A stretch of 64,000 nucleotides of DNA from a virus. Lineage: Duplodnaviria > Caudoviricetes. Below, one piece after another: positions 20,226 through 60,061 of the stretch. Position 1 is the stretch's first letter. Each line of letters begins with the position of its first letter. The stretch lies in IMG/VR virus record IMGVR_UViG_3300028048_002144. The stretch is one strand, 5' to 3'. The translations under genes were made by a program, and so were the position numbers. Under the pieces are notes generated by a model. It was not told the origin of the DNA, made no database searches, and worked only from the letters and a program-made list of their open reading frames with translations.

Positions 20226-20309
20226 TGGATAGGGTAGGACTTGAACCTACAATGTCAATAAGACGACAGTTTTACAGACTGCTGCATTACCAATTCTGCT
20301 CATCTATCC
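20226..20309 (-). tRNA. tRNA-Tyr(GTA)
   Basis: Cloverleaf; anticodon arm GCAGT-CTGTAAA-ACTGT, V-arm, GGTTCAAGTCC, A73; no encoded CCA. Confidence 0.9.
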
Positions 20310-20329
20310 ATATTCTATTCAATGTCTAT

Positions 20330-20524
20330 TTATTGTAAAAAATACATAATTAAAATTGAAGCTCCAAACAATATAAAAGCTTTAAGCATAGCTTGTATAC
20401 TATCAATTTTTCTTTCATCTTTTGTATTTTGATAAGATAAATAAGGAATAAGTCCTTTAAATACAAAATAAACCATTGAAATTGATGTACCTACTATTGC
20501 TGATATAAATAAAATAGTTTTCAT
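20330..20524 (-). CDS. Small membrane protein
   Basis: 64 aa, two TM segments, RBS. Confidence 0.55.
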   Translation of the reverse strand: MKTILFISAIVGTSISMVYFVFKGLIPYLSYQNTKDERKIDSIQAMLKAFILFGASILIMYFLQ

Positions 20525-20568
20525 TTTCTTTTCCTCTTTTAATAAGCATTAAGATAAATACATTTAAA

Positions 20569-20657
20569 AGTAGGTGATCGGAATCGAACCGATGATCTAT
20601 AAATAAGACGTACAGTTTTGCAGACTGCCTTCTCGAACCAACAGAGAATTCACCTAC
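20569..20657 (-). tRNA. tRNA with GCA (Cys) anticodon and long variable arm
   Basis: GTAGGTG/CACCTAC acceptor, U73, GCAGT-CTGCAAA-ACTGT, ~18-nt V region, GGTTCGATTCC. Confidence 0.85.
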
Positions 20658-20835
20658 ATATATAATTATTTTTCTTTGGTAGTTTGCAATATTGGATATT
20701 TGTTCTAGGTTTAGGGCATTGTTCTAATGGTTTCCATTTGAAGCTATCCATTAAATATCCTAGAACACATTGCATTTCGTATTTGCTACAAGGACTAGAT
20801 TCAAGTGCTCTACATCCATCACATGATTTTTTCAT
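20650..20835 (-). CDS. Small Cys-rich protein
   Basis: SCDGC..C..C..C; stop codon overlaps the tRNA 5' end. Confidence 0.55.
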   Translation of the reverse strand: MKKSCDGCRALESSPCSKYEMQCVLGYLMDSFKWKPLEQCPKPRTNIQYCKLPKKNNYICR

Positions 20836-20837
20836 AA

Positions 20838-21134
20838 TTATCCTTCTTTACTATCTATCCATATAAGTGTAGCTGGAGCAATTACCAGATAAAATATTGC
20901 AATTTTACTAAGAGTTTTCGGTATCAACAAAAAAATTTTCGGAATTAAAAAGAAACACAATAGATCAATAAGATAAAGTCCTGCTATCATGCGTGGAACA
21001 AATCTTTTTGCATGTTCTTCCATTTCATGTTCAGCCTCTCCAATCTTTGTAGTTTTCTCTTCTGGAGAAAGTTCTTCATTAGTTATTGTGCTTGTCACTT
21101 TTGTTGCAAACTTCATATATTCCTTGAGAAACAT
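20838..21134 (-). CDS. Membrane protein
   Basis: 98 aa, C-terminal TMs. Confidence 0.6.
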   Translation of the reverse strand: MFLKEYMKFATKVTSTITNEELSPEEKTTKIGEAEHEMEEHAKRFVPRMIAGLYLIDLLCFFLIPKIFLLIPKTLSKIAIFYLVIAPATLIWIDSKEG

Positions 21135-21155
21135 TTCTTTACTCCCTATTAAAAT

Positions 21156-21488
21156 CTACCAGCCTATTGTTAATAAATCCAAGCATGTTTCATTATCATG
21201 TGTAAATTCTTGATATCCTACTACAATCATTTCCGGATCATAAGAGTCATAGTCTAAAGGATTAATCTTTCCATTTTCGATTTTAAACACACCACAAAAA
21301 CCAAACACATTTGACCATCCAGGAATTTTACTTACATCATGTAACTGGATTACAGCATATTTATCCGAAAATAAATCTGTTTTATCAAACTCAGTTGGCT
21401 TTTCTAAAAATGAAAAATCTTTATAGTCATCAGTATTTAATACACGTTGTTTAAGTTTTTCAAAGGTTTCTTTTTCATTCATTATCAT
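21156..21488 (-). CDS. Hypothetical protein
   Basis: 110-aa ORF, operonic. Confidence 0.6.
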   Translation of the reverse strand: MIMNEKETFEKLKQRVLNTDDYKDFSFLEKPTEFDKTDLFSDKYAVIQLHDVSKIPGWSNVFGFCGVFKIENGKINPLDYDSYDPEMIVVGYQEFTHDNETCLDLLTIGW

Positions 21489-21784
21489 GCCTCAAAACAA
21501 TTTTTATTAGTTTTTGTTTCTGGGTTTTCTGCTAATATTGAATCAAGAATTACTACTCGTGTTCTTTTGGTTTGTTGTCTAAATTTTTCTAAATCACGAT
21601 CATCACTAACAAAATATGTATCTGTGTAATTACACTCTAACTCTCTTTTAACAACATCAGAAACAGATTCATATTGCTGACGTTTTGCGTATCGCAAAAA
21701 TGCTGCTTTAGCAGCTTCGAAAAAGGGATCTCCTTCTTCTTTTTTAGGCTTAAAAAGATTTTTTATACAAGATAATACTTTCAT
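21485..21784 (-). CDS. Hypothetical protein
   Basis: 99-aa ORF, AAGGAG RBS. Confidence 0.6.
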   Translation of the reverse strand: MKVLSCIKNLFKPKKEEGDPFFEAAKAAFLRYAKRQQYESVSDVVKRELECNYTDTYFVSDDRDLEKFRQQTKRTRVVILDSILAENPETKTNKNCFEA

Positions 21785-21823
21785 ATTTTCATTCTCCTTA
21801 TAAATTCAATTATGTTTCTAACA

Positions 21824-22120
21824 TTAATTGTCCTGTAATAATATAATAAGATTTTTCAGAGCTTCTTCTGGAGTATTGCCTTTACCGATAATATAATCGT
21901 TTACATCATGGTCAGGATCATTTCCTTCCCAAAAGTTTTGGCATTCAACATCTCCTGCATCAACAGGAAGTTCAAAAAATATATATGATGGAGATAGATT
22001 AAACGCAAGAAAGCAAGCTCCCGAATATGCTCCACCATATCTGTCTTCGATAATGCAAAGAGGACATGGTATTTTTAAATTTATAAGTTCAGATGATTTC
22101 TGGTTTAAATCTTTATTCAT
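21824..22120 (-). CDS. Hypothetical protein (start MNKDL at 22120)
   Basis: AAGGAG RBS before 22120; the longer track ORF runs through tRNA-His. Confidence 0.6.
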   Translation of the reverse strand: MNKDLNQKSSELINLKIPCPLCIIEDRYGGAYSGACFLAFNLSPSYIFFELPVDAGDVECQNFWEGNDPDHDVNDYIIGKGNTPEEALKNLIILLQDN

Positions 22121-22143
22121 ATTTTCGTTCTCCTTATAAAAAG

Positions 22144-22229
22144 GGTGAAGGAGGAGACTCGAACTCCCACGAGCATTACACTCGGCAGATCCACAATCTG
22201 CTGCGTCTTCCAATTTCGCCACCAACACC
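22144..22229 (-). tRNA. tRNA with GTG (His) anticodon, G-1:C73, Leu-like D arm and long variable arm
   Basis: G-GTGTTGG..TGGCGAAATTGGAAGACGC..GCAGA-TTGTGGA-TCTGC, V-arm CGAG..CTCG, GTTCGAGTC; two U.U acceptor mismatches. Confidence 0.85.
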
Positions 22230-22232
22230 CTA

Positions 22233-22307
22233 TTGCAGAACTGGGAGTCGAACCCAGTATCTCGAGATTATGAGACTCGAATGGTATATCCGTTCCACTC
22301 TTCTGCC
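22233..22307 (-). tRNA. tRNA-Met(CAT), initiator-like and divergent
   Basis: CTCATAA loop, unpaired 1:72 (G/A), A73; lacks the GGG:CCC anticodon stem. Confidence 0.75.
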
Positions 22308-22345
22308 ATGTTATAAAATTATTACAACTAGATTTAGGAAGGTCT

Positions 22346-22416
22346 CTCCCCAGTACAGGACTCGAACCTTGATTTCTTCGTTTCCAAAGTGTTCTACCGA
22401 TTGAACTAACCGGGGA
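22346..22416 (-). ncRNA. tRNA-like RNA with a GAAA tetraloop instead of an anticodon loop
   Basis: 8-bp acceptor TCCCCGGT/ACTGGGGA, D arm GTTC-AATCGGTA-GAAC, stem CTTTG-GAAA-CGAAG, GGTTCGAGTCC. Confidence 0.75.
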
Positions 22417-22441
22417 TTCGCCTTCCATGTCTAATTGTTTA

Positions 22442-22514
<73 letters not shown>

Positions 22515-22638
22515 CTATTAATAATTAATGTCTACGGTCCGAAAACGCCTCGTCTGCAGCCGATACCTTTTATACTGAAATAACAGTTTAAGCATGGCCA
22601 AAAACTGTGCAAACGTATACACAAGGAATAGACAGTAG

Positions 22639-22711
22639 TGATTCCTGCGAGAATCGAACTCTGCATCTTAGCCTTGAAAGGGCTATGTCATAACCATTAG
22701 ACCAAGGAACC
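22639..22711 (-). tRNA. tRNA-Glu(TTC)
   Basis: TAGCC-CTTTCAA-GGCTA; one-base bulge in T stem. Confidence 0.92.
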
Positions 22712-22821
22712 ATGACTCGTTGTTTAGCTAATTTTTAAGTGGACAACGATAACCACTCGCACTAAATTGTAAAACATAAAGTTTCATTTAATAATTCAAG
22801 TTTAGCCTACTTGTTTATTTG

Positions 22822-23823
22822 TTATCTATCGTCTCCGATATCAAAATCGTCCATAGAATCCGAGATATCTTTTTCCTTTTTGATATTCGGTTCTGGCTTT
22901 TTGTAACATATATCTCCACGTTCTAAATGTATTTCTAAAGCGTGATCCAAAATACGTTCTTTTCTTTCTTGTATCATTGTCTTATAAAAATTCTTACGAG
23001 TATCTGATATGATAGGTGTCTCATCAATGATTTTATTGATTTTATCCATATCAATATTTGGAACGATTTTCGCAATTGCTCTTACACAATTAATATCATC
23101 ACTTGAATTAAGCATCTCGTGATAAGTGTATTTTTCTGCATGCTTAATGTCATCTGTTTTTAATAGTGCTGCTTTAGGAAAATCGTACATTCTTCTATCG
23201 ATTTCTTCCCTGCTACTTAGAATTTTTTCAAATGCCTTTTCAGCCAATCCAGGATATAAAGAACTACCACAATCATAAACAGGTGCTAAACGAATTGTTC
23301 GTTCTTGTTCATTAACAAGATATCCCCAGTTCCCCTTATGGCGATCAAAATTGCCAATCAAAGCATCTGCAACAAATGTATCCCAATACCTAGCTATCGA
23401 TTCATCTCTAATTACGGATAATAGAGATCGATCTATGGTTCCATATATTTGATTGTATGTTGGTATGCGACCAATCTCGTTTTTTCTATATACAGTACGC
23501 ATAAACCAATCGAACTCCTGAAGCTTTTCACCTGGTTGTACAAAGTCTTTACATGCAACAACCGGTTCATCCTCATACACACCTAATAAAGTATCGTGTG
23601 TTGGTAATCCCAAAGATCCTACTATATGGCTACCAATGTATTCTGAGAATACGCTGTTTGAGGTGCTTGTTGTCAAATCATTAATCTTTTGTTTTTCATC
23701 GGCAAATTTAAGCATATAATGTTCGCCATTATAAATGATTGATTTCTTAGAATCTGAACCACCATAATCACGCAAACCTTGTTGTGCATATGTAAAATCA
23801 ATGATTTGTTCCATATATACCAC
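22822..23823 (-). CDS. HipA/CtkA-family Ser/Thr kinase
   Basis: YGGSDSK P-loop, YMLKF, SEYIGS, DALIGNFDRHKGNWG, LAPVYDCGSSL. Confidence 0.88.
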   Translation of the reverse strand: MVYMEQIIDFTYAQQGLRDYGGSDSKKSIIYNGEHYMLKFADEKQKINDLTTSTSNSVFSEYIGSHIVGSLGLPTHDTLLGVYEDEPVVACKDFVQPGEKLQEFDWFMRTVYRKNEIGRIPTYNQIYGTIDRSLLSVIRDESIARYWDTFVADALIGNFDRHKGNWGYLVNEQERTIRLAPVYDCGSSLYPGLAEKAFEKILSSREEIDRRMYDFPKAALLKTDDIKHAEKYTYHEMLNSSDDINCVRAIAKIVPNIDMDKINKIIDETPIISDTRKNFYKTMIQERKERILDHALEIHLERGDICYKKPEPNIKKEKDISDSMDDFDIGDDR

Positions 23824-24064
23824 CTCTACAGTAATAATCTTTTAAAGCTTCTTGTTGTTCTCGTGTCAAATCGATATCATATGAATTAATATCCGAACGA
23901 AGATTGTCCATGTAACAATCTGGAAGCTCGCCACCACTGTTTAAATACTCTAACAATTCATCGATATCTCTTTGAATCAAATACGGAATATTAAAATCGA
24001 ACTTCTTTGCATAATACATATATTGTGCTCCTTTTAAATATGTATATCTTTTTATTTGAAACAA
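23798..24064 (-). CDS. Small protein overlapping the kinase start; putative antitoxin
   Basis: AGGAG RBS before MYYAK (~24019); overlapping two-gene unit. Confidence 0.55.
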   Translation of the reverse strand: MFQIKRYTYLKGAQYMYYAKKFDFNIPYLIQRDIDELLEYLNSGGELPDCYMDNLRSDINSYDIDLTREQQEALKDYYCRGGIYGTNH

Positions 24065-24138
24065 AATAACGTTCCATATAATTAGTATAACATTATCATT
24101 TCTACATTATTTACAAAAATAGATTCGATTTAAAGGAA

Positions 24139-24195
24139 TAGCGATAACCGGATTCGAACCGATACCTTGCAAATGCACCATTACACCATATCGCC
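24139..24195 (-). ncRNA. Minimal tRNA-like RNA lacking the anticodon arm
   Basis: GGCGATA/TATCGCT acceptor, TGGTGTAATGGTGCAT D arm, 9-nt linker TTGCAAGGT, ATCGG-TTCGAAT-CCGGT T arm; 57 nt. Confidence 0.7.
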
Positions 24196-24422
24196 ATCAG
24201 ACCGTTTTTAGTCGCCTTTAAAGTTTAATCTCAAAGGATCTCTTGAGTGCGTGATCAAACTCTGTGTCTTTTAATGCCCTATAGGCTCTGTTCTTTAATG
24301 CCCTGTAGGCATGATACTATGATAGGTTTATGGTCTCTTATCCCCGACCTCTCGGATATGTTTAAAGTCTCTAACCCGACTAATTTTGAATCGTCCACTA
24401 AAGCAGGACCTCTCTAATTTTA

Positions 24423-24767
24423 TCAACTATTTTTAACTAGGATATTCTTCATAAAAATATAGTCATTCAAAAAATCTTGTATTTTAGCCTTAACCTTTAT
24501 TGATCCTAGAGTATCTTTCGTTCTATTCATTGTTGAAAATACTAAATCTCTTCTTTTTACATCATCATCAATAAAATAACGGGTATCACAATGAAGAGAA
24601 TTACAAAGTAGTTCTAAATCAAAAGTATTAATTTCTTCGTAAGCAAGTTCATTAGCAATTAGTTTCTTAATTACATCTTCATCTACAAAAGACTCTTTAG
24701 ATAAAATAGAACAATCAATATTCAACATATTCATTCTTTTACGCAATTCATTACCAATGTACTTCAT
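24423..24767 (-). CDS. XRE-like HTH protein
   Basis: IGNELRKRM..LSKES.VD..I..L..LCNSLHC pattern. Confidence 0.55.
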   Translation of the reverse strand: MKYIGNELRKRMNMLNIDCSILSKESFVDEDVIKKLIANELAYEEINTFDLELLCNSLHCDTRYFIDDDVKRRDLVFSTMNRTKDTLGSIKVKAKIQDFLNDYIFMKNILVKNS

Positions 24768-25012
24768 ACGTAAACTCCTATTTAACTATGCTTACAAAAG
24801 ATATCAAAAATATTATTTATCGTGTTTTAGATGATAGAATTTTCATCCAAATCAATCTATATGTATGAATTAAAGACTCTGTGTATTCTTGCATTTCTTT
24901 TAGAATTTTTGGATCTTCAATATGCTTAGGATACCCATATTTTGTTGCATTTAAAAACAAGTGTATCTTAACGTATTTCTCTCGTATTTTTAATTCTTCC
25001 TCAGTCGTATGG

Positions 25013-25198
25013 TTACCAATATGTATTCCATACTGACCAAACTATTATTTTTAACCAAAACGGAACTTTTTTCATTTCTTGAATCATTTCTGGGTGATCT
25101 ATAATATAAATAATTTTACATTTCTCAAGATAAATACGAATAAGAATAAGAATAAGAATTACTATAATTGCTCCAATTGTAATAATAGTTTCATTCAT
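25013..25198 (-). CDS. Small membrane protein (start MNETII)
   Basis: AAAGGGAAG RBS; the longer track ORF overlaps tRNA-Trp. Confidence 0.5.
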   Translation of the reverse strand: MNETIITIGAIIVILILILIRIYLEKCKIIYIIDHPEMIQEMKKVPFWLKIIVWSVWNTYW

Positions 25199-25231
25199 TA
25201 TTGCAATATCTTCCCTTTCTAAAACACTGAG

Positions 25232-25315
25232 CAGGCGTGGAGAGATTCGAACTCTCAGTATCCTTTCGGAGTCATGGTTTTGGAGACCACTGCTGTTCCG
25301 TTGAGCCACACGCCT
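25232..25315 (-). tRNA. tRNA with CCA (Trp) anticodon and long variable arm
   Basis: AGGCGTG/CACGCCT, G73, GTGGT-CTCCAAA-ACCAT, V-arm TCC-GAAA-GGA. Confidence 0.88.
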
Positions 25316-25370
25316 ATAAATAAGTATCAATATTAAGCAATTGTCTAAAATACGAGGTCTCAATACATCA

Positions 25371-25455
25371 GGAGCGTTGCAGGGAATTGAACCCTAAACT
25401 AGTATTTTCCTTCGGCTCAGAACCGCTGTGCTATCCGTTACACCAAACAACGCTC
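25371..25455 (-). tRNA. Atypical tRNA-like RNA, possible CTG (Gln) anticodon
   Basis: 8-bp acceptor GAGCGTTG/CAACGCTC, D arm GTGT-AACGGATA-GCAC, weak CGG-TTCTGAG-CCG arm, extended central region, GGTTCAATTCC. Confidence 0.6.
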
Positions 25456-25552
25456 ATATAGGTAATTTAGGCATTTTGCCAGGGTTTTATGTTGCCAGAT
25501 GCCTCCATCTTAGCGCAATCTTAAAACCACAACCTATTTACCCACATTTTAA

Positions 25553-25636
25553 CGCAGTATCCAGGACTCGAACCTGGAAACCATTTCTGGATGCTTGATT
25601 AGTAGTCAAGTGCTGTACCAATTGAGCCAATACTGC
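25553..25636 (-). tRNA. tRNA-Ser(ACT), A34 anticodon
   Basis: GCAGTAT/ATACTGC, G73, CTTGA-CTACTAA-TCAAG, V-arm CCA-GAAA-TGG. Confidence 0.88.
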
Positions 25637-25803
25637 ATAATTAATGCAGCTCCTCTTGTCTCGAACCTTTACAGATAGGAAAGTTAGCTATTCTTTCGTT
25701 CGTCTGTTTTCCCCAGATCAAATATGCTGGTCTGTCAGGGGACTCAAGGATACTGCTTTAACTAGGTCGTAATGCCTAAAATACGAGGTCACAATGCCCC
25801 AAG

Positions 25804-25875
25804 CGACTCTACTGGGAATCGAACCCAAATCTTCGGATAGACAGTCCGACATAATAGCCGTTATACCATAGAGCC
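25804..25875 (-). tRNA. tRNA-Asp(GTC)
   Basis: TCGGA-CTGTCTA-TCCGA, G73. Confidence 0.93.
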
Positions 25876-26137
25876 ATAGTGCCTACCAATTCACATTATC
25901 ATACATGGGGGGAGGTTCAAATATGTATGAATATGCTATAAGCTCGGCTTTGCTTCCATTTCAAAAGGAGAATTCTAATAATGAAAATAAACGCAGTAAA
26001 CTATAAACAAAATGAAAGGGGAATACTAAAACAAACACAAAAAAAGTGAATGGTATTTAGTAAACATGCGCTTATTCTATTATTAGAGTGCATCTAATGG
26101 GATTCGAACCCATACTCTATTGCTAGAAAGGGATTTT

Positions 26138-26823
26138 CGTACCACTATATCTTTCAATACCCATCTGTGTATATGGTTTGTGGTCTGGAATCAATCTTTG
26201 CCCACTACTAAAAGTGTTGGGGCAGGACATGTATATTCTCTACGCACTCACTTAATAGTGATTGGCACGGTATTGCTACTAGGAAAAGTTTCACCGTTTA
26301 GTGTCCATTCAGCGTAAATATTCCTATTTACCTGCTCATGCTTACCAGAGTAATTCAACTTCTTTTAGTCTGTTTTCCATTCGATATAAAAGTTTATAAC
26401 TATGACTACCTACTTTTCCTGAACATGATTTACTACAAGTTAAATAACGTGTTCTACCACGATTTATATCAACATAAAATCTTGTCCATTTATCGCTTTT
26501 CATAACAAACTTAGCACCACAAATAATACAGGTTTCAATTGTATCTTTGTATTTTCTAGAATGTTGTTTTTGATGCTCACCATGAACTAAAATTTCTAAA
26601 TTAGATAAATCATTATTATCTGGGTTTTCGTCTTTATGATGAACATCTTCTTCTGGCTTTAATGGCCTGCCTAGCTTCTTCGCCATTAAAATTCGAGGAT
26701 ATGAAATTACATGTGGTTTGCCATTTTCATCTACACAGTAAGCTCTCCACCTGCCATCCCTGCATTTGTAAGCTTTTTTAATAAAAAGATCCATATGCTA
26801 TCCTCTCTAAGGCCTTACTATCT
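26138..26823 (-). mobile_element. Group I intron (tRNA-Leu UAA site, IC3-like) carrying an HNH ORF
   Basis: Follows U34, ends in G; P/Q/R/S-like blocks AAACGGTGAAAC, AATACCGTGC, GCGTAGAGAAT, AAGATTGATTCCA. Confidence 0.88.
26342..26794 (-). CDS. Intron-encoded HNH homing endonuclease with C-terminal Zn finger
   Basis: LGRPL..EDVHHKDENPDNNDLSNLEI..H..H; CIICG..CSKSC. Confidence 0.9.
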   Translation of the reverse strand: MDLFIKKAYKCRDGRWRAYCVDENGKPHVISYPRILMAKKLGRPLKPEEDVHHKDENPDNNDLSNLEILVHGEHQKQHSRKYKDTIETCIICGAKFVMKSDKWTRFYVDINRGRTRYLTCSKSCSGKVGSHSYKLLYRMENRLKEVELLW

Positions 26824-27109
26824 AAGTCCCTCGTGTCTGCCAGTTCCACCATAGATGCATATTTGTCTACTTAAAGAACCATTAGAAATGTAGACTTTAT
26901 TCTTTTTAATATAAGGATTTATGTTAATCGTACTACCCTATATTTGGAACCTGGTCAAAAATAAATAATAGATCAAAATAATAATAATATTGGTTAGTTA
27001 ACCTTCGTCTCTAATTCTGTTTGTAAATCTTCTTAAACCCATATCATAAGTCTTCCTTTCTGTAGCCTATTTTTTATTAATAAAATGAGTTTAATGCTTC
27101 ATTTTTTAA

Positions 27110-27181
27110 CAGCCCATACTGGATTCGAACCAGTGCATCAGGGAGTCAAATTCCCCTGCCTTACCGCTTGGCTAATGAGCT
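27110..27181 (-). tRNA. tRNA-Gln(TTG)
   Basis: AGCCAAGCGGTAAGGC D arm, GGGGA-ATTTGAC-TCCCT, G73. Confidence 0.93.
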
Positions 27182-27354
27182 AGATTGTGGGGTTTATCAA
27201 ACCCCACATGTAAAGATTGAGTTATCTCAAAAAAATAATGAGATAAAGGGTAGGTAGGATTTCTACCATGAAAGAAAGTATAAAATCAACATTGAGATAT
27301 CAAAAAGTATCAAAAATATATCTCGAACTATAGTGAAATGGATACTTTTTATAG

Positions 27355-27428
27355 CGGATTCGCCAGGACTCGAACCTGGGACATCATGATTAACAGTCAT
27401 GCGTTCTAACCGACTGAACTACGAATCC
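27355..27428 (-). tRNA. tRNA-Asn(GTT)
   Basis: Canonical cloverleaf, CATGA-CTGTTAA-TCATG. Confidence 0.95.
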
Positions 27429-27613
27429 ATACAGGAAACATCACTTTGATAAATGACGTTTCCAGGACATCCTTCTACAACATGGTAGACGATTATTCGA
27501 GGATTTTGATACCGCAGTTCCACAACTGCGTACAACAAACAGAAAGGAAGGTGACGTTACGTGAAGTGCGACCCCTATCTGTCTATTGCATTAAATTGTA
27601 AGAGACAGAGTGT

Positions 27614-28221
27614 TACATAAACACTCTATAAGAATAACTGCCGAACTCGTTTTACTAACTTCGCTCTATTCTTAATAGCACCACTATATTCGATCACATG
27701 GAAGATACATGCGAACCTAAATTGTACGGGTTTAGGCTATGTACCCTGGCAAGCCATGAAAGGACTGATACCTTTAACTTTCACCACCATTCGCATTAAA
27801 ATAACAGATCCTTATAAATCTTCTGTTTTTAAGATTTTAATGCAAGCATTAGGCTACTCGTACAGACTTCTATTCTTATTGGTAAGAATTTCTTCTTACA
27901 TCTATGCTTTACCTACTTATTTGATTATTCCAACTGCAGTATCCCTTGTTATCACACGCAGGGCTTACAGGGTTCCCTACCTATTTCTAGTGGGCTTATT
28001 ATCGCAGGTGATAGTTTGTCTTATCTTTAGCTTCGTCTATCAAGATATGCCATAACCAACGTTTGAGAGGTTCCTCTCTTTTATCTCTATTATTACTAAT
28101 AAAGAAGTGGGCTCTCACATACACTATCGCATATGCTTATCCTTTGATTGCATTATGCCCTAGCAGAGTTGGCGACTCTTCTGCACTAGGATGGCAATTA
28201 TTCTTATAGAATGTTTATGTA
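27614..28221 (-). ncRNA. Large structured ncRNA, ROOL-like (~608 nt)
   Basis: 29-bp terminal helix whose two mismatches are both G.U on the minus strand; many internal stems; no credible ORF; inside a tRNA array; family assigned from size and context only. Confidence 0.7.
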
Positions 28222-28256
28222 TTTTTCAATGTGCATATTAAGCTATTAAAAGCTTA

Positions 28257-28336
28257 GGGGCACCTAGAGAGTCGAACTCTAACCGGTGTTTTGTCTTTCA
28301 GGACCGCTGATGTGCTACCGTTACACTAAAATGCCC
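28257..28336 (-). ncRNA. Atypical tRNA-like RNA (possible 8/4 fold) with no canonical anticodon loop
   Basis: GGGCATTT/AGGTGCCC, TA, GTGT-AACGGTA-GCAC, AGAG-TTCGACT-CTCT; central part resembles 25371-25455. Confidence 0.65.
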
Positions 28337-28463
28337 ATACTCAATGTTCTATTTAATGTGGGAACAAAGAAGCCACAGGGTAAAAGAAATGAATGAATTA
28401 ACAATCCAAGAAATCTTTGATATGAAGTCTTGAAATGATGCTGCCGACAATAACGACAGCAAG

Positions 28464-28537
28464 TGGACCATGTTGGACTCGAACCAACGACAGCTCGCTT
28501 ATGAGGCGAGTGGTCTAACCAACTGACCTAATGGTCC
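28464..28537 (-). tRNA. tRNA(CAT), probably Ile2 (lysidine type)
   Basis: GGACCAT/ATGGTCC acceptor as in Firmicute tRNA-Ile2; CTCGC-CTCATAA-GCGAG. Confidence 0.85.
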
Positions 28538-28665
28538 ATGCGAGAGACCAAAAATAAACAAGAGAAAGGAGACTGGTCTCTCTAAAACTATGAAAAAAAT
28601 ATTGATTTATTAAAGCAGAAAGCCCTATGCTCATATAAAACTTACGATAAGACCTTCTGCCTTAA

Positions 28666-28747
28666 TGACCCTGATGGGACTCGAACCCACATGAGCTACG
28701 CTCGCATGATTAAAAGTCATGTGCCATACCAATTAGGCGACAGAGTC
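28666..28747 (-). tRNA. tRNA with TTT (Lys) anticodon and long variable arm
   Basis: GACTCTG/CAGGGTC, A73, CATGA-CTTTTAA-TCATG, V-arm GAGC-GTA-GCTC. Confidence 0.88.
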
Positions 28748-28831
28748 ATAGTGCAGATATTCTCTGCACTAAAAACGTATTTTGAAAGGAGTATATGCAA
28801 CAGATGATTTTACTTTATCTATCTTGTTGAC

Positions 28832-32040: not shown

Positions 32041-33267
32041 ATGGATAAGAAAAATATTAAACCTTTTAAGCAGGAAAATTTATTAAAGTCAAATTTCTTC
32101 ATTGGCATGAAGTATAAATCAAAGCCTTTGGAAGATAAAATCGTCTTTTTAAGTATGCTTGCAATTCAGAAAAATGAATTTGAAGAAAAAGAAGATGGTC
32201 TTTATGTGAAGTTACGTGCTTCTGAGATTAAGAAATCACTTAATATTAAAAGTGGCCATTTTTACACTAACTTAAAAAGTGCAGCAGCTGCTCTTACTGC
32301 GACTAATTATGGTTACGTAGATGATAACTCTGAGCAATTCGTTTTTATTACTATTATCAATAAAGCAGAATACAAGGACGGGGAATTAATTCTTAGATTC
32401 CCGAAAGAGCTTAAAAATGAATTAGTTGGAGTTAGAAGAAAATTTACTAGTTTGCCTAAAGAGTCAGTTATGTCTCTTAATAAATCTTATACATATCCTT
32501 TATACCAATTGCTTAAAAGCCAGTGCTATTATCCAGCTACATATAACGGCCCTAAAGAAAACGTTTTCGCTGTAGAAATCGGTTTGTCAGAGCTTAAGTT
32601 AGATATGGGTGTCGTTAATTCTAACCTAAAATCTGTTCGAGACGTTTTATCCTTTAGTAAAGGTAGTCCTACTGATTATGATAAAGCAGTAGACAAGTCT
32701 CCAGAACAGTTATATAGGCGCTGGGGAGATTTTAATAAAAGATGTCTTAAACCGGCTATAGAAGAAATTAATGAAAAGACTGATATTTATGTAGAATATA
32801 CTAAAATTACTAGCGGTTATGGTGGTAAAGTTAAAGGTGTTGATTTTACTGTTTGGCTTAATGGAGCAGAAAAACAATACATAGATAATAAAAAACGTGT
32901 TGTTTTAGATGAAGATGAAACTATTCAGATCAAGATGGATGATAGCGATAAGTTTATGTTCCATGTTAATGTTATGAATTTGTTTGCTGATTATGCAAAG
33001 TTACCTTATGAGGATATTGTTTCTATCTCAGAAGAAGCAGAATATAATATGGAGAAAATTAACCAGGCTAAAAAGGCTTTACAAGCTAGTAATTCTGTTA
33101 TTGATAATATAACTGGTTGGATTATAACTGCGATCCGTGATAGTTACACAGCTAATAAGGTTAAACAAAATAAAACCACTTTCAATAGTTTTTCTGAAAG
33201 AGAAGATATGTCTGAAAAAGATATTTTAGAATTGAACGGAAATATATTCGAAAATAATAAAGAATAA
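32041..33267 (+). CDS. Plasmid replication initiator (Rep_3/RepB family)
   Basis: KSN..YK, FTSL..SYTYPLYQLLKS, Y..WGDFNKRCLKPAIEEINEKTD..V.Y..GGKV..V.F. Confidence 0.9.
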   Translation: MDKKNIKPFKQENLLKSNFFIGMKYKSKPLEDKIVFLSMLAIQKNEFEEKEDGLYVKLRASEIKKSLNIKSGHFYTNLKSAAAALTATNYGYVDDNSEQFVFITIINKAEYKDGELILRFPKELKNELVGVRRKFTSLPKESVMSLNKSYTYPLYQLLKSQCYYPATYNGPKENVFAVEIGLSELKLDMGVVNSNLKSVRDVLSFSKGSPTDYDKAVDKSPEQLYRRWGDFNKRCLKPAIEEINEKTDIYVEYTKITSGYGGKVKGVDFTVWLNGAEKQYIDNKKRVVLDEDETIQIKMDDSDKFMFHVNVMNLFADYAKLPYEDIVSISEEAEYNMEKINQAKKALQASNSVIDNITGWIITAIRDSYTANKVKQNKTTFNSFSEREDMSEKDILELNGNIFENNKE

Positions 33268-35209: not shown

Positions 35210-38200
35210 TTAGAAATAACTAACTGATGAACTTTGATTAACTAATGGTGCTGATTCATCGAATCCATCAATATCAGCGATTGTATCTGGATTTAAGCTA
35301 TAGTATTTTGTACTATCAATTTCAGCCAACTCTTTATCCATACAAAGTCCTAATGTTTTAATTGTAGAATCTTTTCTATTCTCATCTTTAGAGAATGGCT
35401 CTTTATTATTAGGAGCCATATTTTGACGCATAGCTACAGACTCGTTTATATATGTTGATGAACGTATATTAGTTAATGTACTTTGCAAGTTTAGTAAATC
35501 GTTAGGAGTAGCTTTATTTGCTGCCTGAGCATCAATTGCTTCGCCTAATACATCTCTAGCATTATTATCTGGTTTTAATTTTTTGCTTTCAGCGATCTTT
35601 CTACTATTCGCTTCAGCTTCAATCTCTGCTATTGATCTTTTTACAGATAATGTCTTTTTCTTTAGGATATAAATATTTTTACTGTTTCCATCTGCAGTAT
35701 ATTTATAGAATGGCATCATTTCATATCGTACTTTACGTGCTTTAAATGGTGCTATACCTCTCAAGAAGAAGATACACTGATCATTATCCATTGTTCTTAA
35801 TTCATCTGGAGTCATTAATGCTCTCTTAGATGCACTATCTGAATAACTTACTGAACCCTTACCATTTTTAGATATAGAAGTATTACGTTTTATAATAGTT
35901 GTTTCACCTAAATACTTAGATATATATTCGAGCGTTTCTGGATCATTAGAACCTAAGAATAATAATGAATCACAGTTACCTATAATTGTACCGTAGTTAT
36001 CTTTATAGATATTCTTAATCTGTCCAATATTCTGAAGAATAATAGTAGCTGAGATTTCATACTTTCTCATTGTTGCTAGTTTTTGCTCAAAGTATGGGAT
36101 TCGACCTACGTTAGCAAACTCGTCTAACAGGAATCTAACGTGGAATGGCAACCATTTACCAGCTCGTGTAATCTTACAATTTTGCATTGCTAGTATCTTT
36201 GATTTAGCAACTTTTTCTTCACTATATGTTTTAAATAATTCAAAATGTTCATTTAACACATTTTCATCCGTCAGATCGTATTTAGAGGTAATATCTACTT
36301 CTTCCTTTGGTGGCTCCTCTTCAACCTTTTTCTTATTATTCCCTAAATTAGAGATAGCACTTAAAATGCCCTTCTTAGCTTTAAGTTCTTCTTCCTTTTC
36401 ATCATTTTTAACTTCTTTTTCTGGTTCTTCAGGAACAACTTTTGGTACGTAAATCTCGTATTTTGAACCTCTCTGAATCATTACCGCATGTTTTGCTCTC
36501 TTTACAAAGTATTCAGCTTCTTTTTTAGCTTCATCGTTTTCTTCGCCAATACTATCGTCTGGTCTTGTTGCTTCGTCTTCGGCATCATCATTTACTCTAT
36601 CTTCACCAGTAAGAACTTTATATTCTTTCTTACCTTGTACTATGTTATCTTCATCAATGAATATTCCATTATCTTCATCAAGGGTTAATCCGTCATTTTG
36701 CTGTCGTTTTTCATCTTCTTTAATCTTAGTCTCCTTCTTGAAAATGCTTATTATTTTATCAAGAATAGACTTTTTCTTTTCTTTTGTTTCTTCCTCAGCT
36801 TCTGTTTCCTTTTCGCCCTGGCCGATAACTTTACCATTCTTGATTACGAAAGCCTTTGATATTTCATTAGTTTCAACAACTTCTTCTTCAACATGTTTAT
36901 TCTTTATAATCTTTATACGTTCTCCAACACTGTCTTCTATCATATAATTTCCCTGACATAAAGCATTAGCCTGGAAATACAGTGTCTGGAACAGCTGAGT
37001 ATAAAGAATAGCGGCCAAGAAGTTAAATGAATCATGTTCCTGTGGCAAAATTGCAAATAATGCAGTCTTTTCCATTCCGACTTGTTCAAGGTTAATTGTA
37101 TCTTCAGTAAGAAGATCTGCAATCTCTTTTGAATCGAGCGTAGAAAGTCTTGATAATGCAGAAATAAGAATACTCTGTAATGTTTTTCCAGCAGCTGACT
37201 TAAACTTATGATACTGTCGTATAGAAATATCTACACCATAAGGTTCATGGTATTTATAAAGATTAGCTTGTCCTCTTGGAGGTTTCCCTAATTGGAAATT
37301 ACCGTTTTCGTCAAAATACCATCCATCAGACTCAATAGCCTGGAAGTATTTATCAGTTTTATTCATTTCAGTTGTTGAGGAGTCTTCACTAACTTTACAA
37401 TCTTCCATTAACTGAACTACAGACAATAGGTTCTGTTTCAAACCTAATTCTGGTCCATGTAACCATAACAAATAAATAAAGGACTGTATCATCAACTTCT
37501 GTGCTTTTTCCCAGAAGTCATCTCCACCTTTGGCATTTGCATCTTTAGTATTTTCAAGGATAACGTCTGTCAGAATAAGTACATCAGTATCAGTATGAAT
37601 ATATCTCATAGGATTAAACTTATCTGATTTTTCCATCTCATATAAGTTAAAGACTTTAATCTTATATCCCATACTCTCTAGCAAATGTCCGGTATCTTGT
37701 AATAATTCTCCCGATGGATCGGAACAAACAAAAGATGTATTTAGCGGCATTAACGCAAGATTAGGCTTAACAAAGAATCTTGATTTACCTGTACCAGCAC
37801 CACCAATTACAACGACATTATTGTTTCTTCTTGTCTGTCTAGTATCCATTGACATATAAACAGTATCTGAGAAAATCATATCCTTTGTTGGTTTTTCAAG
37901 TGAATATGCTCCAGCAGAATATGTATAATGACTATTCCATACTGTTAGTTTTGGATCTTTTTCAGTATACCAGGCTGCAGTACCATCTTCTGTACCTTTT
38001 TTTGCATGTCCATTCTTCCACATTTCTTGTAAATACGCATATATCATTACCATTGATATTGAACTAAGTATTACAAGCAAATTTGTACCTAGATTAACTG
38101 GCATAGCTGGTAAGGAAAATGGATTGGCTGATATTCCTTCCATTGTTTTACCGAGTATAGTGAACGTAGTATCTATTGGCGAAGCCAATGCTTGATATGC

Positions 38201-38302
38201 GCTATACTGTACGCCTACATATATGCCTACTGCATATATTATTCCCCACATTATTATAAATTGGAGATTCAGGCTTTTTTCTGTACCTTTTTTTAAGTCC
38301 AT
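35210..38302 (-). CDS. virD4: Type IV coupling protein VirD4/TraG
   Basis: TM N-terminus, GGAGTGKSR, DPSGEL, DDFWE, LLDEFANVG, LQNIGQ, RALMTPDEL. Confidence 0.93.
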   Translation of the reverse strand: MDLKKGTEKSLNLQFIIMWGIIYAVGIYVGVQYSAYQALASPIDTTFTILGKTMEGISANPFSLPAMPVNLGTNLLVILSSISMVMIYAYLQEMWKNGHAKKGTEDGTAAWYTEKDPKLTVWNSHYTYSAGAYSLEKPTKDMIFSDTVYMSMDTRQTRRNNNVVVIGGAGTGKSRFFVKPNLALMPLNTSFVCSDPSGELLQDTGHLLESMGYKIKVFNLYEMEKSDKFNPMRYIHTDTDVLILTDVILENTKDANAKGGDDFWEKAQKLMIQSFIYLLWLHGPELGLKQNLLSVVQLMEDCKVSEDSSTTEMNKTDKYFQAIESDGWYFDENGNFQLGKPPRGQANLYKYHEPYGVDISIRQYHKFKSAAGKTLQSILISALSRLSTLDSKEIADLLTEDTINLEQVGMEKTALFAILPQEHDSFNFLAAILYTQLFQTLYFQANALCQGNYMIEDSVGERIKIIKNKHVEEEVVETNEISKAFVIKNGKVIGQGEKETEAEEETKEKKKSILDKIISIFKKETKIKEDEKRQQNDGLTLDEDNGIFIDEDNIVQGKKEYKVLTGEDRVNDDAEDEATRPDDSIGEENDEAKKEAEYFVKRAKHAVMIQRGSKYEIYVPKVVPEEPEKEVKNDEKEEELKAKKGILSAISNLGNNKKKVEEEPPKEEVDITSKYDLTDENVLNEHFELFKTYSEEKVAKSKILAMQNCKITRAGKWLPFHVRFLLDEFANVGRIPYFEQKLATMRKYEISATIILQNIGQIKNIYKDNYGTIIGNCDSLLFLGSNDPETLEYISKYLGETTIIKRNTSISKNGKGSVSYSDSASKRALMTPDELRTMDNDQCIFFLRGIAPFKARKVRYEMMPFYKYTADGNSKNIYILKKKTLSVKRSIAEIEAEANSRKIAESKKLKPDNNARDVLGEAIDAQAANKATPNDLLNLQSTLTNIRSSTYINESVAMRQNMAPNNKEPFSKDENRKDSTIKTLGLCMDKELAEIDSTKYYSLNPDTIADIDGFDESAPLVNQSSSVSYF

Positions 38303-48299: not shown

Positions 48300-50732
48300 T
48301 TAGAATAAACTCTTTCTATCAGTTTTTTGTGTATTATGCTTTTTCTTATCATCTGGTTTAGTTGTAAATAACTTATACAACAGTAGATTCTGTGGGAATT
48401 CATTTACAAATGGTATAGTTACACCATCTTTTCTAATAAGTCCCTGCCCAAATGGTGATTCATCAATAAATGCTAACTGAGATTCTGATAAGTTATAATG
48501 GTCTCTCAAAATCTCAATACCAGTAGGCTTCTGCGACAGAATCATCATGAATGATGAGTTATCAAGTACACTAAATCCAGCTTCACTATTAAAGTCTACA
48601 ATACTCTGTGTAATAGCTGTTGGAACGCCATCCCACTTTCTAGCTCTTCTCCAGATTGTAGATAAGTATTCAGCAGCTGTTGGAGTCTTTAATGCGTGAT
48701 GTGCCTCATCAATATAAATACGTGTTCTCTTTCCTTTCGCAAAGTTAGCAATAATCGTATTCCAGATGTGGTCAAGGCATACCATGTATCCAGTTTCCTT
48801 TAGTCCAGATCCTAATGACTTGATATTGTATACTGTAAATCTGTTATTTACCTCAATATTTGTCTTATGAGCAAATATATCATGAGTTGTAGTATAAAGT
48901 TCAAGCTGTGCAGCCAGGTCAGGCGCATATGGGTTATTTTCACTTCTTATGGCATCAATGAAATCTATAAGTGTTGGTGAGAACTCTGGCTGACAGGTAA
49001 TACTCTTGTCCTGCAGTAATCTCATTTGTTCAAGATATGGTCTATACATCTTTACTACTGCACTAGAAATCAAACTCTGTTCTGGAAGTGTCAGTGATCT
49101 TGTTTTACCTATCATAGTATCCACTAGTGATAAGATATAATCTGATTTTACCTTTACAGGATCCAGATTAGTCTGATTATCTTCATCACCGTACTGTAAG
49201 TCCATATCGAATGGGTTCAAGAATAATGTTGAACCTTGTGCAAGTTTAATTTCTGCTCCATTAAATGCTTTTATTAATTCTGAATACTCTCCTTCAGGAT
49301 CAATAATGATAATATCATCATCTGTATTTAAGAATACACTTGCAATCTCTTGCTTTGCAGCCATTGATTTACCAGAACCAGGAGTACCAACGATAATTCC
49401 GTTAGGGTTATTTCCTTTCGTTCTATCATAGATAAGCATATTCTTTGTATTAGCATTTAATCCGTAGTAGATACCACCTTCATCCATAAGTTCTACAGAA
49501 TTAAATGGAATAAACAATGCTACGTTATCAGATGGCATTGTAAAAGGTGTGATTCCATCATCTCTACACAATGGAAGAACAGTCTTAAATCCGTCTTCCT
49601 GTCTAAATGATAATCTATCTGCCTTAATGATGAATGTATTTAATTCGGTAAGCAATGTTTGCTCATTCATATTTAATTCATCTAATGTATCAGCAGTAAT
49701 TAAGAATGTGCAACTGAATAAGAACAGCTTCTGATCTCCAGACTGTACTTCTTCGATTAATTCATTAGCTTGCTCATGTGCATACTTTAATTTTGGAGAA
49801 ATCAAATCTCCACTATATCCAGCTTTAAATGCCTGTTTTTCTGCATCAATTACGTCACCACGGATTCCAGTAGCTTTATCATTCAGCTTTTTGATAGCTT
49901 TATCCTGAGATAATGGAATAATGTTATATGATGCAACTACATTTATTGGCAGTGAAGCTATTGAACTTACAACATCAGTATTTAAAAGGCTAGGATAATT
50001 CTTTACGAATATTGTTCTCGCATATAAATTACCCATTCTAAAGTCATTGATTGAGTTGAAATAGAATCCAGATGGAGCAATGAAATCTTTAGTTGAGTCG
50101 CCACGTTTAGTTAATGTAGCGATATCTATTCTCTCGTCACCCTTGATCTCTTTATTAGTAATCATTTCCTGGATAGTCGTTAATCTATCTTCAATAGTCT
50201 GTGTTTTTACAATAGGCTTAGATGTTTTTGCAAGTCTAGTAAGCTGCTTCTTAATTTCAGAATCATTTCGACCTAACTGGATTCTTGCTTCTTCTACATC
50301 TACAGCTTCTACACCTATTACTAAGTATTTATCTGTTATGATATTATTTCTTCCAGATTTACTCTGTATTTCGAGAAGTTTATTATAATCTTCTCTATAT
50401 TCATTGTATGAATCACTTTTCATTCTGATCTTAACTTTTTGAATAGCTGTTTCGTTATCTATTGTTTTATTATGGATAACTAACTGTATTCTAGTATTAG
50501 ATGAAAACGAATTTAAAAATCTAACATAATTGTCGAAGATTTTTTCTTGTTCAACATCAGATGCAGCTGAAAAATTTATATCATCCAGCTTATATGCCTT
50601 AGTAAAGAACTGTGGTTTTGATTCGATAATACCATCATCATATATGCTGTAATATGGTATAGTCTCTTGTGCTGTTCTTGGCTTTGGTTCTTTCGCCTTT
50701 TTAGGGCTTTTTTTGATATTAACAAAACTCAT
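48300..50732 (-). CDS. virB4: VirB4-like conjugal transfer ATPase
   Basis: GTPGSGKS, IIDPEGEY, NPFD, YIDEAH, RARKW..TAITQ. Confidence 0.93.
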   Translation of the reverse strand: MSFVNIKKSPKKAKEPKPRTAQETIPYYSIYDDGIIESKPQFFTKAYKLDDINFSAASDVEQEKIFDNYVRFLNSFSSNTRIQLVIHNKTIDNETAIQKVKIRMKSDSYNEYREDYNKLLEIQSKSGRNNIITDKYLVIGVEAVDVEEARIQLGRNDSEIKKQLTRLAKTSKPIVKTQTIEDRLTTIQEMITNKEIKGDERIDIATLTKRGDSTKDFIAPSGFYFNSINDFRMGNLYARTIFVKNYPSLLNTDVVSSIASLPINVVASYNIIPLSQDKAIKKLNDKATGIRGDVIDAEKQAFKAGYSGDLISPKLKYAHEQANELIEEVQSGDQKLFLFSCTFLITADTLDELNMNEQTLLTELNTFIIKADRLSFRQEDGFKTVLPLCRDDGITPFTMPSDNVALFIPFNSVELMDEGGIYYGLNANTKNMLIYDRTKGNNPNGIIVGTPGSGKSMAAKQEIASVFLNTDDDIIIIDPEGEYSELIKAFNGAEIKLAQGSTLFLNPFDMDLQYGDEDNQTNLDPVKVKSDYILSLVDTMIGKTRSLTLPEQSLISSAVVKMYRPYLEQMRLLQDKSITCQPEFSPTLIDFIDAIRSENNPYAPDLAAQLELYTTTHDIFAHKTNIEVNNRFTVYNIKSLGSGLKETGYMVCLDHIWNTIIANFAKGKRTRIYIDEAHHALKTPTAAEYLSTIWRRARKWDGVPTAITQSIVDFNSEAGFSVLDNSSFMMILSQKPTGIEILRDHYNLSESQLAFIDESPFGQGLIRKDGVTIPFVNEFPQNLLLYKLFTTKPDDKKKHNTQKTDRKSLF

Positions 50733-58576: not shown

Positions 58577-60061
58577 TTACTTCTGGCTTTTATATGCCAT
58601 AATCTTTTCCTCTATTGAATTTTCATCTTGTATTAGTTCTGGTTCAAGGGCAGCCATTTTTATATTTTCATTATTATTCTCATCTGAATTATTCTTGTTT
58701 GGTTCAGTATCATTAGCCTTTACAACATCAGTAGCTTTTAAATTAAGCTTATCTCCCCAAATAGCTGCAGCTTTTTCTTTGTCCATTTTATCTTTCTTTG
58801 TTTCTTTATAGCCCTGCTCTATTAAGTTTTCTTTTACAAGCTCATTTTCAAATGGATTTGTAATCTGGGCATTCTTGAATTTCTTCTTTATCTTTGAAGG
58901 AATTACTGTTCGATAGAATTCTCCATCATCTAATAACAGATAACATTTATTTTCCCCTTCATCATTTGAGAAGAATCCGATCTGATCGATATATCGTCTC
59001 TGTCCACCTTTTCCATCTGGTTTCATAGATACCATGATCGCTACATCTATGAATTCATATACGTTATTCTTGAATCGCTTCTCTACAATACTATCATCAA
59101 TCATGTTTACCATTCGTTCTGGTACTTTTCTTACATCATCTGTATGTAGTGTAGTGATTCCGTTTACACCAGTAGTAAATCCCTGCATAAGATACTTAAC
59201 TTCGTTTGCTCTTGTTTCAGCGATCATTATCCAGTCTGGATTCTGCTTTAGTGATGCTACAATTGCGTCTGAATATGTAATATCTTTATTAGTCTTCATT
59301 TCAATTACATCTGCAGTTGGATTCAAGGCTTTATAATGCCATTCAAGTACATCTTCAATAGTGATTACTCTTTCGAGATCAGGGATATACTTTGAAATAA
59401 ATTTTGCAAGCTCTGTTTTTCCGGCTCCAGGGTTTCCACAAATAATTACATTCATATGTGCTTTTACGAAATTAGCAAGCAAACATAATACTGGTTCGCT
59501 TACATAAGCTTCTTCAAGAGCTTTACCTTCTTTGATTCGTTCTACTACAGGTGTCTTTCTGATACAGATAGATAATCCTGTCTGAGCAATAGATGGATGC
59601 ACAGATGAAAAACGAAGATCTTTTGTTTCAGCTTCCAAGAATGGATTCTTCTGATTGAATTCCTGGGACTGGATATTTGCTACGTTCTGCGCAAGCTTTG
59701 TCATAGCTTCGATTGTTAATTTACTCTTATCGAAGTATTCTGGTGTATGTCCATCTTCGATTTCTTTTCCATTTGCATCGTATTTCGCTAACATATCCTC
59801 TCCGTCTTTAGCTTTCCAATGACGGTTATAGATATCTGTTAATACTAATTCTCCATTGTTATAGTCTACGTCAGTTATATCTGTATTCTGTACGTAACCT
59901 TTAATGGATTCGAAATCCTCTATAAACAACTGAAATCCAGCATGTGTTTCTGATGCCTGGACTCCTTCTTTCTGTTCGATCTTTTCTTTTATTGTGAATG
60001 CGTCATCTGAAAAAACGTTTTTATTATCAATCGTTTCTTCGGGTATTTTTTTATTGAACAT
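58577..60061 (-). CDS. cpaF: TadA/CpaF (VirB11-like) ATPase
   Basis: ICIRK, GNPGAGKT, ITIEDVLE, QNPDWIMIAETR, TTLH. Confidence 0.88.
   Translation of the reverse strand: MFNKKIPEETIDNKNVFSDDAFTIKEKIEQKEGVQASETHAGFQLFIEDFESIKGYVQNTDITDVDYNNGELVLTDIYNRHWKAKDGEDMLAKYDANGKEIEDGHTPEYFDKSKLTIEAMTKLAQNVANIQSQEFNQKNPFLEAETKDLRFSSVHPSIAQTGLSICIRKTPVVERIKEGKALEEAYVSEPVLCLLANFVKAHMNVIICGNPGAGKTELAKFISKYIPDLERVITIEDVLEWHYKALNPTADVIEMKTNKDITYSDAIVASLKQNPDWIMIAETRANEVKYLMQGFTTGVNGITTLHTDDVRKVPERMVNMIDDSIVEKRFKNNVYEFIDVAIMVSMKPDGKGGQRRYIDQIGFFSNDEGENKCYLLLDDGEFYRTVIPSKIKKKFKNAQITNPFENELVKENLIEQGYKETKKDKMDKEKAAAIWGDKLNLKATDVVKANDTEPNKNNSDENNNENIKMAALEPELIQDENSIEEKIMAYKSQK

Follow-up and report, generated by a model that had tools for sequence, protein, structure and literature searches.

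The window analysed here, which is the whole 64,000-nucleotide (nt) stretch of IMG/VR record IMGVR_UViG_3300028048_002144, belongs, judged by its gene content, to a conjugative plasmid of a Firmicute from the gut or rumen. On its minus strand, from 20226 to 28748, lies an array in which ARAGORN finds 13 tRNA genes and in which Rfam additionally matches a ROOL RNA and three weaker candidates for its tRNA model. The anticodon set fits the commonest codons of the plasmid (AAA 67, GAA 67, GAT 60 and AAT 50 per thousand). Six of these tRNAs, namely Lys(UUU), Trp(CCA), His(GUG), Cys(GCA), Tyr(GUA) and one with the anticodon ACU, carry a paired long variable (V) arm. In textbooks and tRNA databases, a long variable arm in bacteria is exclusive to Leu, Ser, Tyr and Sec, and the identity rules for aminoacyl-tRNA synthetases are built on this restriction. 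The original prediction held that the arms of the Lys, Trp, His and Cys tRNAs are paired and that their discriminator bases nevertheless fit their anticodons. ARAGORN and the Rfam matches bear out the pairing, with stems, written as DNA, of GAGC/GCTC, TCC/GGA, CGAGT/GCTCG and GTCT/AGAT, respectively, and the discriminators are indeed A73 in Lys, G73 in Trp, C73 opposite an encoded G-1 in His and U73 in Cys.

The Lys, Trp and His tRNAs are 7/5 molecules (base pairs [bp] in the acceptor and T stems). tRNA-Lys(UUU) occupies 28666..28747 (28665-28748 in ARAGORN; RF00005, 59.2 bits), has A73 and U13.U22, and its V arm at 28691-28704 consists of C, GAGC-GUA-GCUC and AU. tRNA-Trp(CCA) occupies 25232..25315 (ARAGORN 25231-25315; RF00005, 53.0 bits), has A1:U72, G73 and C13.C22, and its V arm at 25257-25273 reads UCC-GAAA-GGA followed by a 3' tail. 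tRNA-His(GUG) lies at 22144..22229 (ARAGORN 22143-22228; RF00005, 38.2 bits) and has a V arm, CGAGU-GUAAU-GCUCG, at 22169-22184. Class II tRNAs are defined by a V region of more than 10 nt with a stem-loop, and the V regions of Lys, Trp, His and Cys measure 14, 17, 16 and 19 nt with stems of 3 to 5 bp. The 3-bp D stem and non-Watson-Crick 13:22 of class II tRNAs are also present in Lys (U.U), Trp (C.C) and His (A.A), and 13:22 is likewise unpaired in all V-arm tRNAs of the array, the ACU tRNA (C.C) among them. An eighth acceptor pair is not possible in Lys, Trp or His, so these three do not have the 8/4 or 9/3 folds of allo-tRNAs. No anticodon mimic was found in the V loops of the Lys, Trp, His and Cys arms.

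The acceptor stem of tRNA-His has U.U mismatches at 4:69 and 5:68. Both of these adjacent mismatches (GUGU(U/C)GG / CCUUCAC) are kept in the window and in contigs L448 (2147-2231) and L375, with a long or a short V region, and they look conserved rather than decayed because they recur in three different contigs. The L448 homologue also keeps the His V arm, with a compensatory change of U.G to A-U, and L332 keeps the window Lys arm with a single change in the loop. Trp homologues have V stems that differ in sequence yet remain complementary. A derivation of tRNA-His from tRNA-Leu, raised by Leu(UAG) tRNAs being its nearest phage relatives, was dropped because L375 has the identical acceptor with a short V region and because the D arm resembles that of Firmicute tRNA-His, as in Bacillus subtilis.

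The fourth of these tRNAs differs in kind. tRNA-Cys(GCA), at 20569..20657, has its V arm at 20593-20611 and is recognized by ARAGORN; it has no match to the general Rfam tRNA model, RF00005, and matches the tRNA-Sec model RF01852 with 41.7 bits (E 1.5e-7), under the gathering score of 47. In the RF01852 alignment, the acceptor has 8 bp and the T stem 4 bp, while the anticodon stem and the D stem, which closes a UGGU loop, have 6 bp each. By its predicted fold, Cys is thus, unlike the 7/5 Lys, Trp and His tRNAs, an 8/4, tRNA-Sec-like molecule of an already described class, resembling the published selC* tRNA-Cys, a distinction that the original prediction did not draw. With those molecules, known from Clostridia, Bacilli and other anaerobes (PMC5389517), it has in common the 8/4 fold, the long D stem with its UGGU loop, the long V arm, U73 and GCA. 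The selC* tRNA-Cys genes are chromosomal, occur with full Sec machinery and in some cases adjoin selB* or cysS* (PMC5389517), whereas the window gene is plasmid-borne, in a tRNA array next to a related tRNA-Tyr gene, and scores under the tRNA-Sec gathering score; nothing like selA, selB, selC, selD, selB* or cysS* was seen among the larger open reading frames (ORFs) of the window that were scanned. That neighbour, an ordinary class II tRNA-Tyr(GUA) at 20226..20309 (minus strand; ARAGORN, Rfam), is identical to tRNA-Cys over 27 nt covering the anticodon arm and the start of the V arm, which points to remoulding of a class II scaffold. A 25-base Cys/Tyr pattern had no match in metagenomes.

Conservation of the arm was followed mainly in the Lys family, which was collected with a pattern, blind to V length, from the D arm and anticodon arm of the window tRNA. 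The pattern occurs on more than 119 contigs of human gut and rumen metagenomes. Among the 92 distinct sequences, the V region is 4 to 7 nt long in 62 and 14 to 19 nt in 30, with none between. When the window and L050 are added, the long form comprises 29 distinct V regions with 19 different stem strands; all 29 form a hairpin of at least 3 bp, as against 31% of shuffles, and their common layout is C, stem, loop, stem, AU. In a covariance-model alignment (R1, 32 sequences), standard pairs make up 96.6%, compared with 36 to 45% when the partners are slid. All four V-stem pairs have changed on both sides (in 2, 12, 18 and 19 cells), and in this the V stem equals the acceptor and T stems. The seed alignment has no variation at C72 or A73; in the family, conservation is complete in the loops of the anticodon and T arms and in the acceptor stems, and every helix shows covariation. 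The arms are conserved and covary in homologues and so appear to be under selection, as had been proposed for them from the window alone. RNAalifold did not recover the V stem from a MAFFT alignment of long-V Trp tRNAs, because the arms were misaligned there, and per-sequence folding and covariance-model alignment were used instead.

Long V arms on class I tRNAs are common on mobile elements. Long-V Lys, Trp and Cys tRNAs together occur on more than 300 IMG/VR contigs, 83 stretches being found by the Lys pattern; these counts are selected by pattern, and the figures for Trp and Cys are lower bounds. Among 3,340 tRNAs in the IMG/VR loci, a long V region is also present in Asn, Ile, Thr, His, Met and Val, which were not selected for, and almost never in Ala and Gly. 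The V regions fold better than their shuffles, with mean z scores of -6.3 for long-V Trp, -4.2 for Cys and -2.7 for Lys, similar to the -3.6 of Ser and the -2.4 of Tyr (the value for Leu is not usable), and GNRA loops are favoured in the long-V Trp, Cys and Lys tRNAs as they are in Leu and Ser. Compared with short-V tRNAs of the same kinds, fewer of the long-V Lys, Trp, His, Thr and Ile tRNAs have a 4-bp D stem (Fisher p 7e-4 to 6e-10). Many of the long-V Cys and Trp tRNAs have D arms of Tyr or Ser type. In cellular genomes, for which the control is a sample of one phylum and one tRNA, none of 401 Bacillota genomes had the long-V Lys pattern; when its flanks were allowed a gap of any length, 170 of the 401 matched, with normal spacing in 150 of the 150 matches listed. 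Given how common the arm is among plasmids and phages, and given that the Lys form was not found in these genomes, life on a mobile element appears to favour it.

Two further features of these loci were observed. The converse anomaly is common, in that tRNA-Leu (UAG, CAA, AAG and CAG) and some tRNA-Ser(UGA) have V loops of 4 to 5 nt within these arrays, in L050, L448, L443, L383 and further loci from gut or rumen and from IMG/VR. Long-V tRNA-Ile(UAU) in IMG/VR has a conserved V loop, CAGAUUA (9 of 22) or AGAUG (e.g., L006:8593-8686, L016:2362-2455 and L029:2010-2101).

Across hundreds of tRNAs from mobile elements, the discriminator and the 1:72 pair go with the anticodon and not with the scaffold. 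Long-V Trp tRNAs have G73 in 98% and A1:U72 or G1.U72 in 89%, as against G1:C72 in 93% of Ser tRNAs; U73 is present in 92% of long-V Cys and A73 in all of the Tyr tRNAs. Long-V His tRNAs have C73 in 90%, with G-1 encoded upstream in nearly every gene, and long-V Asn tRNAs have G73 with U1:A72. The arms are also shorter, at 3 to 4 bp, than those of Ser (median 5 bp). In the window, tRNA-His has the G-1 (at 22229) opposite C73 and the GUG anticodon that define histidine identity, tRNA-Trp has the G73, A1:U72 and CCA of bacterial tRNA-Trp, and tRNA-Lys has A73 with UUU. The original prediction had allowed for two outcomes, reshaped cognate tRNAs or missense tRNAs placing Ser at UGG and Leu at AAA. 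Cognate charging and ordinary decoding are favoured over missense on these sequence grounds, because the identity elements agree with the anticodon, the arms fall short of the length seen in Ser, and the anticodons match the commonest codons of the plasmid.

We therefore consider it probable that the long-V tRNAs are plasmid-borne isoacceptors, cognately charged, in which the long V arm is a selected structural module. Most likely, the ordinary LysRS, HisRS, TrpRS and CysRS (the synthetases for these amino acids) of the host would charge them by way of the anticodon, discriminator and first pair, and the tRNAs would then read the A/U-rich codons that are heavily used by this AT-rich plasmid; we infer from their sequences that they are expressed, charged and used by the ribosome. 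The arm, a short hairpin of 3 to 5 bp whose loop is often GNRA, would together with the opened 13:22 represent a true class II architecture and not decay. On Lys, His and Trp, it was presumably gained on their own 7/5 type of scaffold, while the scaffold of Cys would be of the 8/4, tRNA-Sec-like type and akin to the neighbouring Tyr in the anticodon and V region. Several points weigh against this reading. LysRS and HisRS are class II enzymes, which approach the tRNA from the side of the variable loop, so a V arm could hinder charging. The window tRNA-Cys falls under the gathering score of every Rfam model, and the window tRNA-His combines two acceptor mismatches with an RF00005 score of just 38 bits. 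Scaffold class is loose in both directions, with many Leu tRNAs armless in the same arrays, which fits tolerance and not benefit. As to benefit, we know of no nuclease that is blocked by a V arm.

The ACU tRNA, at 25553..25636 (minus strand; ARAGORN, Rfam), would read AGU and may be an Asn- or Lys-type scaffold that was converted to a Ser(AGU) reader. It has G73, a class I-type D arm, a short 3-bp V arm (CCA-GAAA-UGG) and a T arm identical to that of the neighbouring tRNA-Asn, and it is the top non-family match of the R1 model of the Lys V arm (62.2 bits). The plasmid uses AGU at 13.6 per thousand, against 5.8 for AGC.

The strongest rival to a selected module, possible if rather unlikely, is that the arm is tolerated baggage. 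tRNA arrays duplicate, recombine and switch anticodons, and the arm may have come from class II donors or by insertion with no benefit of its own, a neat hairpin being kept merely since an unstructured insert would do harm. The tract shared by the window Cys and Tyr tRNAs speaks for this reading, as do the Tyr- and Ser-type D arms of so many IMG/VR long-V Cys and Trp tRNAs. The frequent loss of the Leu arm indicates that scaffold class is loose on mobile elements and drifts both ways, which makes tolerated drift a serious contender. However, V length is bimodal, and the arm persists across wide divergence with compensatory changes. Its absence from the Bacillota genomes also counts against mere tolerance, as does its anticodon-specific distribution. 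Among distinct genes of the gut arrays, a long V region is present in 30 of 97 Lys(UUU) tRNAs and in only 2 of 31 Lys(CUU) tRNAs (p 0.008); although one LysRS serves both, the two differ, which suggests that a factor linked to the anticodon is involved.

If the arm is indeed a selected module, its likeliest benefit, which we put forward tentatively, is that the arm would change the shape of these tRNAs close to the 3' strand of the anticodon stem and so make them poor substrates for the tRNA nucleases or toxins of the host or of rivals. The AriB nuclease of PARIS targets Lys(UUU), Thr(UGU) and Asn(GUU) and cuts at 40/41 (PMC12409363). Targets of this kind and a cut that adjoins the base of the arm plausibly fit an escape from tRNA-targeting enzymes, as does the excess of long V regions in Lys(UUU) over Lys(CUU). 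A broader version, which is speculative, is that mobile elements systematically rebuild certain class I tRNAs to class II shape with their identity kept, chiefly Lys(UUU) and His(GUG) but in this element Trp and Cys as well, the arm serving as armour or as a self-mark against weapons that cut or modify tRNAs. If true, this would be a shape-based form of counter-defence, distinct from the known escape by point mutation. Phage variants of Lys(UUU), Thr(UGU) and Asn(GUU) tRNAs resist host tRNases (PMC10264068, PMC11464382, PMC12409363), and they resemble the window tRNAs in belonging to tracts of tRNA genes on mobile elements; their resistance is due to point changes in the anticodon stem-loop, and gain of a V arm is not among the means described in these studies.

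A role outside translation, for example as decoys, regulators or RNAs linked to toxin-antitoxin systems that may be charged and yet never reach the ribosome, seems very unlikely. Some allo-tRNAs and irregular tRNAs with G-1 are charged yet inactive in translation and lie near toxin-antitoxin genes (PMC5389517), and the window array itself contains tRNA-like RNAs without a usable anticodon, a HipA-like kinase gene and a ROOL RNA. Against such a role stand the covariation of every helix, the full conservation of the acceptor stems and of the loops of the anticodon and T arms, the fit of the anticodon set to the codon usage of the element, and the fact that homologues of the HipA-like kinase show no linkage to tRNAs. 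Least probable of all is deliberate missense, by which G73 and a V arm would attract SerRS to the CCA tRNA (W>S) and A73 and a V arm would attract LeuRS to the UUU tRNA (K>L): recognition by SerRS does depend on G73 and the long arm and not on the anticodon (PMC7609411), and allo-tRNAs (PMC5389517) and the nev-tRNAs of nematodes are natural precedents, but the 1:72 pair of long-V Trp is unlike that of Ser, the arms are shorter than Ser arms, the U73 of Cys and the G-1:C73 of His are kept although no synthetase of the class II tRNAs uses them, and K>L would be very costly because AAA, level with GAA at 67 per thousand, is the joint-commonest codon of the plasmid.

The long-V tRNAs of the window can be compared with several known groups. 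Like ordinary bacterial Leu, Ser and Tyr tRNAs, they have a V hairpin of 3 to 5 bp, often a GNRA loop, an open 13:22 and, Cys excepted, a 7/5 fold; unlike these, their anticodon and acceptor identity belong to class I amino acids. The nev-tRNAs of nematodes combine a class II scaffold with class I anticodons (Gly and Ile) and are charged with Leu, and hence are missense tRNAs of eukaryotes, whereas the identity elements of the window tRNAs match the anticodon. The allo-tRNAs of Mukai et al. (2017; PMC5389517) likewise have a long V arm with anticodons other than those of Ser, Leu and Tyr, are found on mobile DNA and near toxin-antitoxin genes, in some cases in phage tRNA clusters, and are 8/4 or 9/3. 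The window Lys, Trp and His tRNAs differ from these in being 7/5, in having cognate and not serine identity elements, and in being without a Sec-like D arm. A full-text literature search found comparable cases limited to allo-tRNAs, selC* tRNA-Cys and 8/4 His (PMC5389517). Long-V Lys, His or Trp tRNAs of the 7/5 type were found neither in a 2020 review that covers non-canonical tRNAs (PMC7609411) nor by a term search of the 2023 identity review (PMC9976931).

A covarying arm with cognate identity on Lys, His, Trp and Cys suggests that the class II shape is probably tolerated in no fewer than four additional synthetase/tRNA systems. Such tRNAs would be direct test objects for recognition by tRNA-targeting defence nucleases and natural scaffolds for tRNA engineering. 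They also carry a warning for annotation: long-V genes may be mistyped or missed, the window Cys having no match to the general Rfam tRNA model.

The remaining tRNAs of the array have short V regions and are all on the minus strand (ARAGORN, Rfam): Thr(UGU) at 22442-22514, Glu(UUC) at 22639-22711, Asp(GUC) at 25804-25875, Gln(UUG) at 27110-27181, Asn(GUU) at 27355-27428 and Met(CAU) at 28464-28537. The ROOL RNA lies at 27624..28214 (minus strand; RF03087, 205 bits). Three weak RF00005 matches of 38 to 40 bits (minus strand, 22233-22307, 22347-22415 and 24139-24195), not called by ARAGORN, are tRNA-like RNAs that lack a usable anticodon arm and lie among real tRNAs. Two further tRNA-like RNAs, at 25371-25455 and about 28258-28337 (minus strand), are related to each other and have CAGCGGU(U/C)CUGA in common; the first of them, which ARAGORN forces to a Gln(ctg) whose anticodon stem is poor, has a weak match of 25 bits to tRNA-Sec. 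Scans for promoters and terminators gave results no better than shuffles.

Within the array, a gene for a kinase of 333 amino acids with a HipA_C domain (22822..23823, minus strand; PF07804) overlaps an upstream ORF of 88 amino acids, the two spanning 22822-24064. Kinase homologues are abundant on mobile elements of gut Firmicutes, with a small ORF overlapping the start of the kinase gene in most contexts that were retrieved, and the pair is reminiscent, in this arrangement, of the split HipS/HipT systems. The homologues come from Lachnospiraceae, Selenomonadaceae and gut or rumen metagenomes, and a 95%-identical copy is present on an NCBI contig of a metagenome-assembled genome. The kinase was rejected as a guide to related arrays, since the contigs of its homologues (L084-L087 and L323-L328) have almost no tRNAs; no relatives of the HipA-like and exonuclease proteins were found in IMG/VR. 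An HNH endonuclease gene with structured-looking flanks stands between tRNA genes (26342-26794, minus strand) and may be a homing element inside the array.

Outside the array, the assignment to a conjugative plasmid and not a phage is based on a Rep_3 replication initiator (32041..33267, plus strand) and on type IV secretion genes, namely a VirD4/TraG-type coupling protein (35210..38302, minus strand), a VirB4/TraG-type ATPase (48300-50732) and a VirB11-type ATPase (58577-60061). A phage origin was rejected, as the PHROG match to a terminase is to the P-loop ATPase of VirB4/TraG type. Near-identical relatives of the element were found neither in the phage collection nor in the plasmid collection. 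Towards the end of the window, a HEARO RNA (RF02033, 128.6 bits; 61276-61537, minus strand) adjoins an HD-domain gene at 60621-61169.

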